Positions 25,608-30,264 of a stretch of 30,264 nucleotides of DNA are shown here, in pieces. The DNA is from a virus. Lineage: Duplodnaviria > Heunggongvirae > Uroviricota > Caudoviricetes. The position numbers and the translations under genes are program-made. Under the pieces are notes generated by a model. The model saw only the letters and a program-made list of their open reading frames with translations, was not told the DNA's origin and ran no database searches. Numbering within the stretch: position 1 is the stretch's first letter; every line of letters starts with the position of its first letter. The stretch lies in the IMG/VR virus record IMGVR_UViG_2571042445_000006. One strand, given 5' to 3'.

Positions 25608-28600
25608 ATGACAGTAAAAATTTCTGGCGTGCTTAAAGATGGCACAGGAAAACCAGTACAGAACTGCACCATTGTGCTGAAGGCCAGACGAACCAGCAGC
25701 ACGGTGGTGGTGAACACGGTGGCCTCTGAAAATCCGGATGAAGCCGGACGTTACAGCATGGATGTTGAGCATGGCCAGTACAGCGTCACCCTGCTGGTTG
25801 AAGGTTTTCCGCCTTCACATGCCGGGACCATTACCGTCTATGAAGGTTCCAGACCAGGTACGCTGAATGATTTTCTCGGTGCCATGACGGAGGATGATGT
25901 CCGACCGGAGGCACTGCGCCGCTTTGAGCAGATGGTGGAAGAGGTGTCACGTAACGCCTCCGCGGTTGCACAGAATACGGCAGCCGCGAAAAAATCAGCC
26001 AGCGATGCCAGTGCATCAGCCAGCGAGGCGGCAACTCATGCAACCGATGCTGCAGCCTCAGCACGTGCCGCCAGCACGTCAGCCGGACAGGCCGCGTCGT
26101 CGGCTCAGTCAGCGTCTTCCAGCGCAGGAACGGCATCGACAAAGGCCCGTGAAGCAGCAAAAAGTGCTGCTGCTGCAGAGTCATCAAAAAGCGCGGCAGC
26201 TACCAGCGCCAGTGCCGCGAAAACGTCAGAAACGAATGCCGCAGCATCACAAAAATCGGCAGCCACTTCTGCATCCACAGCGACCATGAAGGCGTCAGAA
26301 GCTGCCACCTCGGCACGGGGTGCGGCGGCCTCAAAAGAGGCAGCGAAATCTTCAGAAACGAATGCATCATCAAGTGCCAGTAGTGCAGCTTCCTCGGCAA
26401 CGGCGGCAGGAAATTCCGCGAAGGCGGCAAAAACGTCCGAGACGAACGCTAAGTCTTCTGAAACAGCAGCGGGACAGAGCGCCTCAGCTGCGGCAGGTTC
26501 AAAAACAGCGGCTGCATTATCTGCCAGTGCCGCGTCAACAAGTGCCGGGCAGGCCTCAGCCAGTGCCACCGCCGCCGGAAAATCGGCAGAAAGCGCCGCA
26601 TCATCCGCTTCAACAGCCACAACGAAGGCTGGCAAAGCCACTGAGCAAGCCACTGCAGCAGCGAGGTCTGCTTCTGCAGCAAAAACCTCTGAAACAAATG
26701 CAAAGACTTCAGCAGACAATGCTGCTTCCTCTAAGGCGGCAGCCGCATCGTCAGCCAGTTCAGCGGCGTCATCGGCATCATCTGCGTCTGCTTCAAAAGA
26801 TGAGGCGACCAGACAAGCGTCAGCAGCGAAAGGTAGTGCCACGACAGCAACAACGAAAGCATCAGAGGCGGCAGGCAGTGCGACGGCTGCATCTCAGAGC
26901 AAAGTTGCTGCTGAATCCGCGGCAACGCGCGCCGAGACAGCAGCAAAACGGGCAGAGGATATTGCATCCGCCGTGGCGCTGGAGGATGCGAGCACGACGA
27001 AAAAGGGGATAGTACAGCTCAGCAGTGCAACAAACAGCACCAGTGAAAAGCTGGCGGCAACGCCAAAGGCAGTTAAAACTGTTAAAGATAGTTCAGTTCA
27101 AAAAACTGGCGACACAATGGGAGGGCAGTTAAAAATCAGCACGATAAATGCTCTTCGAATATTCAACCAAGCCTTTGGCCTTATTTTTAGGCGTTCCGAA
27201 GATCATCTTCATCTTATTCCGACTAATGAAGGGGAGGGGGAAAATGGAGACATCGGTTCATTAAGACCATTCTCTATAAACTTAAGATCAGGGTTGGTGT
27301 CCATCGGTAATGGACTAAAAGTTGGTGGTAGTGTTACTGGTAATTTGACCGGAAACGCAGATACTGCGACCAAGATCAAGACAGCACGTAAGATTGGGGG
27401 CGTGGCATTTGATGGATCGGCAGATATCAACTTGCCTGGAGTCAACGCTACCGGTAATCAAAACACTACAGGTAATGCTGCGACCGCCACGAAACTTCAG
27501 GCAGCCAGAACGATTAACGGTGTGTCATTTGATGGTAGTGCAAATATCACATTGACCCCTTCAAATATTGGGGCATTGGCATTAACTGGAGGGACTCTTT
27601 CAGGTGGTTTAACTGCTGCTGGTGAGGTTATTTCAAGGTCAGCAAATGGTCTGCGTATTGCCTATGGCAACTATGGATTCTTTATCCGAAATGATGGATC
27701 AAACACATATTTTATGTTGACAGATTCGGGTAACAGTCTTGGTACGCACAATAGCTTAAGGCCGTTTATAATTAGTAACCATACTGGCAATGTTACAATT
27801 GCAACTAAATTAAACGCGAGTGGTGGTATCACTGGATCTTTATCGGGTAATGCAAGCACAGCAACCAAATTGCAAACTGCAAGGACAATTAACGGCGTAA
27901 AATTTGACGGCTCGGCAAATATTGAAGCGTTTCCGCCAGGTGTTCCGCTGCCGTGGCCATCAGATACACCACCTGCAGGTTATGCGATCATGCAGGGGCA
28001 GACGTTTGATAAGGCAGCATATCCGAAACTGGCTATTGCCTATCCTTCAGGTGTTATTCCAGATATGCGCGGCTGGACAATCAAGGGCAAACCCGCCAGT
28101 GGCCGGGCCGTATTGTCTCAGGAACAGGACGGCATAAAATCGCACACCCACAGCGCCAGCGCATCCAGTACGGATTTGGGGACGAAAACCACATCGTCGT
28201 TTGATTACGGCACTAAATCCACGAATAACACCGGGGCGCATACGCACAGTCTGAGTGGCTCTACGGGGTCTGCCGGTGTTCATACTCATGGTAATGGTAT
28301 TCGTTGGCCAGGAGGCGGCGGTTCTGCGTTAGCATTTTATGATGGCGGTGGGTTCACTTATGTCCAGAATTCACAGTATCAAGTAAGCCCGGAGACTTCT
28401 TCCTATAGATCGTATTATCAACGTATTCAGACACAGTCAGCAGGTGCTCATACCCACTCGCTGTCTGGTACTGCAGCAAGTTCTGGCGCACATGCACATA
28501 CTGTAGGTATTGGTGCGCATACGCACTCCGTTGCGATTGGTTCACATGGACACACCATCACCGTTAACGCTGCGGGTAACGCGGAAAACACCGTCAAAAA

Positions 28601-28634
28601 CATCGCATTTAACTATATTGTGAGGCTTGCATAA
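25608..28634 (+). CDS. stf: Side tail fibre protein Stf (1008 aa) with Ala/Ser-rich low-complexity region, phage tail-fibre repeats and C-terminal His-rich HxH motifs
   Basis: N-terminus [28 protein letters not shown]... and C-terminus ...[16 protein letters not shown] match lambda Stf; the central region has three copies of the motif TATKLQ(T)ARTINGV(S/K)FDGSANI. Confidence 0.95.
27343..27915 (+). repeat. Three tandem coding repeats inside stf (phage tail-fibre repeat motif), in an AT-richer segment than the surrounding gene
   Basis: Protein-level repeats [28 protein letters not shown] / [28 protein letters not shown] / [28 protein letters not shown]. Confidence 0.8.
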
Positions 28635-29218
28635 TGGCATTCAGAATGAGTGAACAAGCACGGACCATAAAAATTTATAATCTGCTGGCCGGAACTAATG
28701 AATTTATTGGTGAAGGTGACGCATATATTCCGCCTCATACAGGTCTGCCAGCAAACAGTACCGATATTGCACCACCAGATATTCCTGCTGGCTTTGTGGC
28801 TGTTTTCAACAGTGATGAGGCATCGTGGCATCTCGTTGAAGACCATCGGGGGAAAACGGTTTATGACGTAGCGTCAGGGGACGAGTTATTTATTTCTGAA
28901 CTCGGTCCGTTACCGGAAAATGTTACCTGGTTATCGCCGGAAGGGGAGTTTCAGAAGTGGAACGGCACAGCCTGGGTGAAGGATACGGAAGCAGAAAAAC
29001 TGTTCCGGATCCGGGAGGCGGAAGAAACAAAAAACAACCTGATGCAGGTAGCCAGTGAGCATATTGCGCCGCTTCAGGATGCTGCAGATCTGGAAATTGC
29101 AACGGAGGAAGAAACCTCATTGCTGGAAGCCTGGAAAAAGTATCGGGTGTTGCTGAACCGTGTTGATACATCAACTGCACCTGATATTGAGTGGCCTACG
29201 AACCCTGTCAGGGAGTAA
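28634..29218 (+). CDS. tfa: Tail fibre assembly protein Tfa
   Basis: 194-aa product [39 protein letters not shown]... matching lambda Tfa; start overlaps the stf stop (TAATG). Confidence 0.95.
29054..29218 (+). repeat. Direct repeat copy 1 (tfa 3-prime end, about 165 bp)
   Basis: About 85 percent identical to 30103-30264, including a perfectly conserved 38-nt core cgtgttgatacatcaactgcacctgatattgagtggcc. Confidence 0.85.
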
Positions 29219-29232
29219 TCATTGGGATTATG

Positions 29233-29265
29233 CCGCAGCACGTCTTAAGCAAGAACGTGCTGCGG
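29233..29265. terminator. Hairpin between convergent tfa and methyltransferase genes (11-bp stem ccgcagcacgt/acgtgctgcgg), possible bidirectional terminator
   Basis: Read directly; the U-tract on the plus strand is 9 nt away from the stem, so assignment is tentative. Confidence 0.4.
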
Positions 29266-29272
29266 TTGGATG

Positions 29273-29941
29273 CTATTTTTTCCCTGAAGCGGAAAACATT
29301 ACTACAGTACCTTGAACCTTGGTTTTAACATTCTCGAAATGCTCTGAGAGTATATGTGTTAAGCCTTCTTCGGAATCTTTTGTGTTTGAAAAGATGCCTT
29401 TCTGATTGTAAATGCGCATCAGTTTTTGACCGAAGCTATTGTGCACAACTCCATCGCCAAGAATTGTGGCTCCGTATAGAGTTCCATCGTCAGTTAAGGC
29501 CTGCGCCGCATTGCGTATTACACAGCTTTTTGTAGATATATTTCCAGGCAGGCAGTGAAGAAGGTAAAACATGGAAATGGAATCAAATTGACCATGTAAC
29601 GCCGCGGGATAAGGTTCAAAAACATCATGGCTAATTTTATGTTTAATTTTTGATTCCCCAGCCCTTGTAGATGCCGCGTTCAGGCTAGCTTCGTTCAAAT
29701 CCATTAAAGATATCAGACTACTCTCAGGTACGTGAGTAAGGTAAAACCCAGTTCCAACACCAATATCCAGATGGTTGTTACCTACATGTTCCAGAAAGTG
29801 TGGAAGAAGGTGTTCCTTTGTAGGACATCCCCATGCAAGCCGATTTGATACTCCCAAAACCCACCAGTCATAAAGCTTTAGGGTAAGTGGTGTGTAAATT
29901 TTAGCCCCATCATCTGTGTTTTTTTTCATTGATTTCACCAT
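29273..29941 (-). CDS. Class I SAM-dependent methyltransferase (Rossmann fold, motif I LDIGVGTGF); substrate unknown
   Basis: 222-aa minus-strand ORF in an AT-rich segment; glycine-rich SAM-binding motif I (LDIGVGTGFYL) and a downstream acidic residue (LMD); no DPPY or PCQ DNA-methyltransferase motifs seen. Alternative start at the Met 12 nt downstream of 29941. Confidence 0.75.
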   Translation of the reverse strand: MVKSMKKNTDDGAKIYTPLTLKLYDWWVLGVSNRLAWGCPTKEHLLPHFLEHVGNNHLDIGVGTGFYLTHVPESSLISLMDLNEASLNAASTRAGESKIKHKISHDVFEPYPAALHGQFDSISMFYLLHCLPGNISTKSCVIRNAAQALTDDGTLYGATILGDGVVHNSFGQKLMRIYNQKGIFSNTKDSEEGLTHILSEHFENVKTKVQGTVVMFSASGKK

Positions 29942-29997
29942 GTTATAGTTTTATTTGTGAATTAAATCAATTATGGCGATGAATTACAAGGGGTTAA

Positions 29998-30264
29998 ATG
30001 CTGCCGCAGCATAGCGATATTGAAATAGCCTGGTATGCTTCGATACAGCAGGAGCCGAATGACTGGAAGACCGTCACCACACAGTTCCACATCCAGGAAT
30101 TCAGTGAGTATATTGCGCCACTGCAGGATGCTGTAGATCTGGAAATCGCAACGGCGGAAGAAAGATCGTTGCTGGAGGCATGGAATAAATATCGGGTATT
30201 GTTGAATCGTGTTGATACATCAACTGCACCTGATATTGAGTGGCCGACTTCACCTGCAGAGTAA
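29998..30264 (+). CDS. Tfa-like tail fibre assembly protein paralogue (88 aa) with a divergent N-terminus and conserved Tfa C-terminal domain
   Basis: C-terminal 51 aa ([51 protein letters not shown]) parallels the Tfa C-terminus; AAGGGG RBS upstream; the stop codon is the last triplet of the window. Confidence 0.75.
30103..30264 (+). repeat. Direct repeat copy 2 (tfa-like 3-prime end)
   Basis: See copy 1 at 29054-29218. Confidence 0.85.

Follow-up and report, generated by a model that had tools for sequence, protein, structure and literature searches.

A putative moron cassette with an intact ybcY-type methyltransferase gene at the right end of a lambda-like Escherichia coli prophage

Introduction

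The right end of a 30,264-nucleotide stretch of tailed-phage DNA (Caudoviricetes; IMG/VR record IMGVR_UViG_2571042445_000006), referred to here as the window, carries a gene for a predicted S-adenosylmethionine (SAM)-dependent methyltransferase, which lies on the minus strand between the tail fibre assembly gene tfa and a second, short tfa-like sequence that we call tfa'. How did an enzyme gene come to stand between two tfa-related sequences, what might the enzyme methylate, and what is the second tfa sequence? The region is the right-end accessory cassette of a lambda-like Escherichia coli prophage integrated beside potB. The cassette, made up of a hairpin, the methyltransferase gene, a promoter spacer and tfa', is an intact copy of the ybcY-tfaX module of the K-12 prophage DLP12. 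The module is already known (tfaD-ybcY-tfaX in K-12 DLP12; RefSeq WP_000240999.1) and is functionally uncharacterised; with the DLP12 locus itself as its closest known counterpart, the window gene amounts to an undamaged allele of ybcY. We consider fairly probable a reading in which the cassette is an acquired moron, its enzyme acts on a small molecule and tfa' serves as a homology arm.

Results

Gain and loss of the cassette

Through its final 57 codons tfa' is a duplicate of the 3' end of tfa, a direct repeat which a repeat search delimits as 158 nt at 87% identity, with a longest perfect run of 38 nt (coordinates in Table 1). A first-pass annotation, made from the letters of the window, had described this repeat as about 85% identical with a perfect 38-nt core; both figures hold, since over its coordinates (29054-29218 versus 30103-30264) 141 of 165 nt are identical (85.5%), and the repeat in fact begins 12 nt further upstream. 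The same annotation had proposed that the methyltransferase gene was inserted by recombination between tfa-family genes, and had named uniform presence in related phages as the observation that would speak against acquisition.

Relatives lacking the gene were sought with a synthetic query representing the product of a crossover between the repeats, in which tfa, as far as position 29199, was joined to the final 16 nt of tfa' and to the flanking 231 bp. This query gave a single collinear match in 44 genomes, all with a single tfa and the same flank and without the methyltransferase, and the methyltransferase-plus junction with the same flank was present in 821 genomes. Presence is thus not uniform, and the absence of the cassette from 44 same-flank genomes supports its being acquired cargo. 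Examples without the methyltransferase include the O104:H4 strain 2009EL-2071 (99.7% identical) and E2348/69, in which the prophage order is J-lom-stf-tfa-potB. Before the 38-nt core, the diagnostic sites of the O104:H4 tfa all have the state of the window tfa, and past the core and in the flank they all have that of tfa'; the tfa of the E2348/69 potB prophage is a patchwork of tfa and tfa' types before the core. For O104:H4, forms with and without the gene thus differ by one homologous crossover inside the core, which adds or removes a unit of 1049 bp. A single deletion would be the simplest reading of the O104:H4 form, although acquisition through a cross with a phage that has the cassette would leave an identical sequence. 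Recombination in the core is therefore borne out, and the direction originally proposed, that of insertion, is unsupported, deletion being simpler.

The composition of the gene is also foreign to its surroundings and its orientation opposite, both as had been suggested. The methyltransferase gene has a GC content of 41.2%, and of 35.6% at third codon positions (GC3), whereas the head and tail genes (terL, portal, major capsid, tape measure and J) have a GC3 of 62–68% and the values of stf and tfa fall in between. The block from 29219 to 29997 has 40.8% GC and the spacer within it 26.8%, compared with 52.9% for the whole window. Two features of a moron, deviant composition and absence from close relatives at a precise junction, are thus present.

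Class and fold of the enzyme

The 222-aa open reading frame (ORF) matches four Pfam methyltransferase families above their gathering cut-offs: PF08242 (Methyltransf_12) with 37.5 bits against a cut-off of 30, PF13489 (Methyltransf_23) with 29 against 27, PF13649 (Methyltransf_25) with 27.7 against 27 and PF08241 (Methyltransf_11) with 24.6 against 21.2. These matches, and a structural model, point to a class I (Rossmann-fold) SAM-dependent methyltransferase: motif I is glycine-rich, strand 2 ends in an acidic residue and the sheet has seven strands. Motif I is found by pattern search as LDIGVGTG, and an alignment of 31 homologues shows an invariant D81 and an invariant H105-D106 pair, which from general knowledge of the fold we take to occupy the remaining SAM-binding positions. 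The confident AlphaFold2 model (predicted local distance difference test score, pLDDT, 90.4) is a single Rossmann-type domain with an N-terminal helical cap.

Nucleic acid is not an obvious target. Pattern searches found neither the DNA-methyltransferase motif IV ([DNS]PP[YFWH]) nor PCQ, there being no PP dipeptide in the whole protein, and no DNA-methylase family of Pfam or NCBIfam was matched at E ≤ 0.01. The single 218-aa domain has neither the motif IV nor the target-recognition domain of a DNA methyltransferase, and so the first-pass description of a class I enzyme lacking DNA-methyltransferase motifs stands. The closest sequence matches in the PDB are juvenile hormone acid methyltransferase (JHAMT), UbiG, phosphoethanolamine and phosphatidylethanolamine N-methyltransferases and ToxA, and the top ranks of a Foldseek search are held by PmtA (8ys9), JHAMT, a polyketide C-methyltransferase domain, PfPMT and NodS. 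The profile and structure searches recommended by the first-pass annotation therefore return a small-molecule methyltransferase-like protein, and they reach no curated NCBIfam family (best scores 15.7–18 bits against cut-offs of 175–390).

The best Foldseek match, PmtA 8ys9, aligns at 15–18% identity with a template modelling (TM) score of 0.61–0.67. Membership of the PmtA family was rejected on the curated model (PLipidMtase_Leg, 15.7 bits against a cut-off of 390), and RquA and CpaM were set aside likewise, with NCBIfam scores far under the cut-offs. Helix 18–36, checked as a possible PmtA-type amphipathic helix, has a hydrophobic moment of 0.15. The catalytic pattern of PmtA, formed by Tyr10, His117 and Ser120 (PMC11446283), is not recognisable in the 31-homologue alignment when the two are compared by eye. 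No 19-residue window of the protein is hydrophobic (maximum Kyte-Doolittle mean 0.95), which we take to mean that it has no membrane-spanning segment.

The family has a set of invariant residues of its own. They include Y16, P18, Y24-D25-W26-W27, N33, W37, C39, H57, H105-D106, Y126, H129-C130 and N168, together with the stretch Y178-N179-x-K181-G182-I183-F184-x-N186-x-x-D189, and the N-terminal ones make up an invariant family motif, Y-x-P-x2-L-x2-YDWWVL-x3-N-x2-AW-x-C-x-T. This pattern would fit a defined small pocket. The carboxyl O-methyltransferases CysG and BelI have a His-His-Asp metal site (PMC11408123), which H129-C130...D189 may loosely recall, by analogy and as a lead only.

The region had also been suggested to hold host-interaction or defence cargo. 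A search of PADLOC-DB for an anti-phage defence system gave mad2 as its sole match (12.9 bits, E = 0.009), through the generic methyltransferase core; the candidate was rejected and the suggestion finds no support.

Start and conservation of the gene

The first-pass annotation gave the protein 222 aa, which is the length of the annotated ORF; the true start is probably the internal methionine M5 (29929), giving 218 aa. The ATG at 29941 is ACG in the E2348/69 copy, all 30 homologues begin at M5, and a GGTGA Shine-Dalgarno sequence precedes M5 only. The PHROG profile for the protein likewise spans residues 5–222.

Within E. coli the gene has only 16 variable sites. Among the 31 homologues, which come from Enterobacterales, Aeromonas, Shewanella and Pasteurellaceae, 60 columns of the alignment are invariant. 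The 90%-identity cluster contains 6589 member sequences, those listed being full-length (218–222 aa) or partial, and none of its members carries an informative functional name. The ORF is intact at every locus examined other than K-12, where ybcY is frameshifted by a 2-nt deletion exactly in the A8 run.

Transcription signals

The hairpin between the convergent tfa and methyltransferase genes has a centroid stem of about 15 bp (ΔG −24.4 kcal/mol), with minimum free energy z-scores of −4.35 on the plus strand and −4.40 on the minus strand; none of 200 shuffled sequences folds equally well. It went unreported by a simple terminator scan, and its U-run is offset from the stem. In relatives with other DNA upstream, the hairpin stays joined to the methyltransferase.

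At the other end of the gene, pattern matching and a promoter scan of the spacer identify promoter-like hexamers on both strands: TTGATT-17-TATAAC (29970-29942) and TTAACC-16-CATAAT (29997-29970) on the minus strand, and ATGGCG-15-TTAAAT (29973-29999) on the plus strand. In K-12, genomic systematic evolution of ligands by exponential enrichment (SELEX) placed a site for the sigma-70 (RpoD) holoenzyme in the ybcY-tfaX spacer, and also an H-NS site (Shimada et al. 2014; PMC3946193). The hexamers given there are the TTGATT/TATAAC and ATGGCG/TTAAAT pairs (PMC3946193). The K-12 counterpart of 29219-29997, spacer included, is 98.8% identical to the window, and by analogy it is plausible that the methyltransferase is transcribed autonomously in the lysogen, damped by H-NS.

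The tfa' relic

The first-pass annotation treated tfa' as a second short tfa-like gene, which is correct for its C-terminal part. The 88-aa ORF matches PF02413 only through residues 31–87, aligned to profile positions 75–131 of 131, so that codons 31–88 correspond to the conserved C-terminal region of Tfa and codons 1–30 are unrelated to tfa; in a search of the phage collection, the N-terminal 30 aa occurred in no full-length tfa and only in copies of the relic. A Tfa protein has a variable N-terminal and a conserved C-terminal part, and here the C-terminal part alone is matched. By contrast tfa itself matches PF02413 with E = 1.9e-44 over profile positions 1–130 of 131, and is assigned to phrog_105 ('tail fiber assembly') and to RefSeq WP_000885577.1. 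The whole of tfa' (88 of 88 positions) matches phrog_2341, and RefSeq flags it as a partial pseudogene. It is frameshifted in one potB-site relative, has an internal stop in K-12 and in another DLP12-site copy, has had its 3' end replaced in phage ev243 and two other loci, and is deleted from the DLP12 relic of E2348/69. The methyltransferase is intact in all of these tfa'-damaged relatives except K-12. The partial PF02413 match and the several independent inactivations mark tfa' as a relic rather than a second gene, and it is best seen, on this sequence evidence, as a conserved, decaying fossil of an earlier tail fibre module. Nor is it a fresh duplication of the insertion target: the relic accompanies the methyltransferase whatever DNA stands upstream.

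Beyond the tfa' stop, within the 231-bp flank (locus L001, 13632-13862), there is a second GC-rich hairpin (CCTCCCCGAC...GTCGGGGAGG). The motif ATTGGGATTAT follows this hairpin and also follows the tfa stop (29222-29232). Its presence after both stops suggests that the duplication may once have extended past the stop codons.

A search for structured RNA in the region returned, above gathering, only matches to the Rfam family IS009 (RF02111), a candidate E. coli small RNA, and these overlap tfa coding sequence and were not retained. The match to the tfa 3' coding region (28977-29175, plus strand) scores 225 bits against a gathering cut-off of 117, and that to tfa' (30021-30224, plus strand) scores 108.8 bits, just under it. 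The family coincides with the sequence encoding the conserved C-terminal region of Tfa and has few pairs in its structure line, and may describe coding conservation rather than an RNA.

Distribution and genomic contexts

Of 5426 complete E. coli genomes, 3870 contain the methyltransferase block, with a maximum of five copies in one genome, and 15 phage records contain it too (ev243, 2G7b and the PhiR series among them). Methyltransferase and tfa' are linked in 3425 genomes, and a tfa of the window type stands directly upstream of the cassette in 1498. Elsewhere the upstream DNA varies: it may be another tail fibre set, as in ev243, a truncated tape-measure gene or, in further relatives, a manganese-catalase and ferritin-like cluster or pin-ydfK-ynaM. 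This variation defines the conserved unit as hairpin, methyltransferase, spacer and tfa'.

Two relatives carry further cargo between tfa and the cassette, namely a manganese catalase, two ferritin-like proteins and a general stress protein in one (L011, 2337-4550), and a pin-type recombinase with ydfK and ynaM in the other (L015, 3311-4635). Such loci mark the interval from tfa to tfa' as a cargo hot spot. On the far side of the cassette, phage ev243 and the DLP12-site relics have an alpha/beta hydrolase gene and ompT, and in K-12 appY and ompT follow (L003, 3831-6455; L010, 6239-8863; L002, 7584-9536). The chromosomal ompT region of E. coli is thereby shown to be the b region of a lambdoid phage.

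Outside these prophages, homologues 56–68% identical to the protein are found in Salmonella, Enterobacter, Erwinia and Yersinia, each encoded by one gene in a non-phage part of the chromosome. Those of Aeromonas and of a Pasteurellaceae species lie at the edges of mobile elements, and an E. coli paralogue of 61% identity has genes for TonB-dependent receptors next to it. The Enterobacter copy is AT-rich as well (39% GC in a locus of 50.5%). The phage copy appears to have been captured from this stand-alone chromosomal family. No neighbouring gene is shared among nine contexts (from Salmonella, Enterobacter, Yersinia, Aeromonas, Erwinia, a Pasteurellaceae species, the E. coli paralogue and Klebsiella), so that the enzyme presumably needs no partner and uses a substrate that is available widely. 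An alpha/beta hydrolase gene lies nearby in three contexts and was considered as a partner; the three belong to unrelated families with no pairwise similarity, and their proximity was put down to chance.

Literature searches found no functional study of ybcY, which is mentioned in lists of genes, in the SELEX promoter table and in one deletion experiment with a negative outcome; a further search on morons and methyltransferases returned nothing relevant. The deletion result is that loss of ybcY had no effect on Hha toxicity (PMC2408971).

Locus layout

The ORF list places the three ORFs, with the methyltransferase on the minus strand, where the first-pass annotation had them (Table 1). A lambdoid prophage found in E. 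coli ATCC 25922 and many other strains matches the window at 100% identity; its gene order starts with the lysis genes and continues with terminase, head, tail, J, lom and stf before reaching tfa. In the window-identical strains, chromosomal potB starts 231 bp past the tfa' stop and tfa' is the last ORF before it. The first-pass annotation allowed for partner genes hidden beyond the end of the window; none is there.

Table 1. Features at the right end of the window, with positions counted from its first letter
Feature	Coordinates	Strand	Description
tfa	28634..29218	+	full-length tail fibre assembly gene, 194 aa, last gene of late operon
upstream repeat copy (tfa 3' end)	29042..29199	+	contains 38-nt core 29159-29196
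GC-rich hairpin	29232..29266		between convergent tfa and methyltransferase, with TATTTTTT after it on the plus strand; putative terminator for both units
methyltransferase coding sequence (intact YbcY)	29273..29929	-	218 aa from probable start M5; 222 aa from annotated start 29941
A8 homopolymer (T8 on plus strand)	29919..29926	-	codons 2-4 after M5, read from sequence
divergent promoter spacer	29942..29997		AT-rich, 56 bp, 27% GC
tfa' (tfaX equivalent)	29998..30264	+	88-codon chimeric relic ORF, ends at last base of window
downstream repeat copy	30091..30248	+	core at 30208-30245

RefSeq also annotates a 45-aa ORF at 29191-29328 on the plus strand as a 'hypothetical protein' (WP_001309429.1), labelled 'nucleocapsid protein' in K-12. 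It covers the tfa stop, the hairpin and the 3' end of the methyltransferase gene; no PHROG matches it, and the annotation is probably spurious. Upstream of tfa, the 1008-aa side tail fibre protein (25608-28634, plus strand) has a long low-complexity run rich in Ala, Ser and Thr, especially over 25950-27150, where the AT skew is +0.3 to +0.44 and the GC content about 0.58–0.61, and it has repeated His-x-His motifs close to its C-terminus. A tRNA scan of the region found none.

Discussion

The reading that we favour, and hold to be fairly probable, is that of an acquired ybcY-tfaX moron cassette. The methyltransferase would be a moron transcribed alone in the lysogen and normally damped by H-NS, captured from the family that stands alone on the chromosomes of other Enterobacterales. 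YbcY would be a soluble, single-domain SAM-dependent enzyme acting alone, and its target a small metabolite of the cytoplasm or a head group of lipid or quinone-like type, methylated on oxygen or nitrogen, and not DNA. The relic tfa' would have no tail function and would persist as a homology arm, through which the cassette could be exchanged or deleted by recombination with any tfa bearing the conserved 3' end.

Several observations weigh against this picture. The promoter evidence is in vitro and comes from K-12, the best-matching −10 hexamer leaves just a 6–7-nt leader ahead of M5, and on neither strand does the hairpin conform to the canonical form of an intrinsic terminator. With so few variable sites, the ratio of non-synonymous to synonymous substitution within E. 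coli is uninformative, and the direction of the crossover event, whether gain or loss, is not decidable from sequence. The K-12 frameshift and the lack of a deletion phenotype in the one assay retrieved further indicate that ybcY is dispensable in the laboratory. These last facts also suit a reading of the gene as neutral baggage, an H-NS-silenced and decaying sequence kept only by its position between recombining tfa sequences in common prophages, as do the H-NS site in the spacer, the clear decay of the adjoining tfa' and the existence of deletion forms without the methyltransferase. Decay is hard to reconcile with an ORF that is intact at all other loci examined and whose 90%-identity cluster runs to thousands of sequences, with invariant columns that include the SAM-binding motifs across the homologues, and with the DLP12 relic of E2348/69, which keeps an intact methyltransferase though it has lost tfa' and nearly all its phage genes; we regard neutral baggage as unlikely. 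A bolder extension of our own reading is given a similarly low probability: that YbcY is a lysogenic-conversion enzyme which methylates a common host metabolite or lipid and so alters host physiology or phage susceptibility, the tfa/tfa' repeats serving as general homology arms by which cargo is shuttled between the tail fibre loci of unrelated lambdoid phages. Were it so, one possibility by analogy would be a metal-assisted carboxyl O-methylation through His129-Cys130...Asp189, and another a head-group N-methylation.

The remaining rivals concern the substrate and the history of the locus. Methylation of nucleic acid, either of DNA against restriction or of a tRNA or rRNA base in a way that tunes translation, strikes us as improbable: beyond the absence of motif IV, PCQ and any DNA-methylase family, a single domain of 218 aa has no room for target recognition, the best sequence and fold matches are small-molecule enzymes, the homologues stand alone on chromosomes without a restriction partner, and the mad2 score is marginal. 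A protein substrate, on a phage tail component or in the host, is suggested by the adjoining tail fibre genes, and class I methyltransferases of this size include protein-modifying enzymes. The gene is oriented opposite to the late operon, however, and is thus not co-expressed with it; moreover, homologues occupy non-phage chromosomal sites and no protein-methyltransferase family or structure is among the top matches, which makes this a very unlikely account. Least credible of all, in our estimate, is that tfa-methyltransferase-tfa' is the ancestral core arrangement of the phage lineage. It is certainly very common, as the counts of 1498 genomes with this tfa and the cassette, and of 821 at the same flank, attest. 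Yet close relatives at potB are without the cassette, their junction lying in the core of the repeat. Lambda yielded nothing but its own tfa when tfa' was searched for, and it is not one of the 15 phage records with a methyltransferase match; the composition is sharply unlike that of the core genes, and the same cassette is found behind unrelated upstream modules.

As a discovery the locus has little weight, for the gene and its tfa-flanked arrangement are annotated in K-12 and in thousands of genomes. Its interest lies in an intact, highly conserved enzyme that is present, often in multiple copies, in about 70% of complete E. coli genomes. Since K-12 is a natural ybcY null, a gain-of-function metabolomics test would be easy. 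The aligned plus/minus pair also offers a clean natural example of relic tail-gene fragments mediating the gain and loss of prophage cargo by homologous recombination.

Comparison with known systems

The nearest comparison is with K-12 DLP12 itself, beside appY-ompT, which has the same gene order, orientation, hairpin, divergent spacer and promoter hexamers. All three K-12 genes are pseudogenes (tfaD is 5'-truncated, ybcY bears the 2-nt deletion in A8 and tfaX an internal stop), whereas in the window the methyltransferase and tfa are intact, and the prophage is at potB rather than at the argU/DLP12 site. With respect to lambda, the cassette occupies the position equivalent to the b region, as the last unit before the junction of prophage and chromosome.

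The moron concept is reportedly that of Hendrix and colleagues. Lambdoid morons and b-region genes such as lom and bor are likewise additional genes situated past the final tail gene and before the attachment site, and the window gene resembles them in its promoter- and terminator-like signals, its deviant composition and its absence from close relatives. Lom and Bor are located at the surface and their effects on the host are known; YbcY differs in being a predicted cytoplasmic enzyme, and in that a relic tfa repeat governs whether the gene is present or absent.

The invertible tail fibre segments of Mu, P1 and e14 similarly have two tfa-related sequences beside a tail fibre gene, and recombination rearranges the locus; P1 U turned up in the tfa' search of the phage collection. 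In those systems the duplicated tfa/U copies are inverted, both are functional, and they are switched by a site-specific invertase. The window copies, by contrast, are direct, one of them is a 5'-truncated relic, and the exchange maps to plain homology.

As an enzyme, YbcY is comparable to the small-molecule class I methyltransferases JHAMT (7ebs/7ec0), UbiG (4kdr) and PfPMT (3uj7), as well as PmtA (8ys9), DhpI (3ou2) and BelI/CysG (9fce/9g0k), with which it shares the seven-stranded Rossmann-type fold, the N-terminal helical cap and motif I (LDIGVGTG) at only 12–21% identity. The aligned segment of JHAMT, FYTLHW, has a histidine right after strand 4, like H129 of YbcY, and UbiG and PfPMT likewise have a histidine directly after this strand. 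YbcY belongs to none of the curated subfamilies tested and is set apart by its own invariant N-terminal motif.

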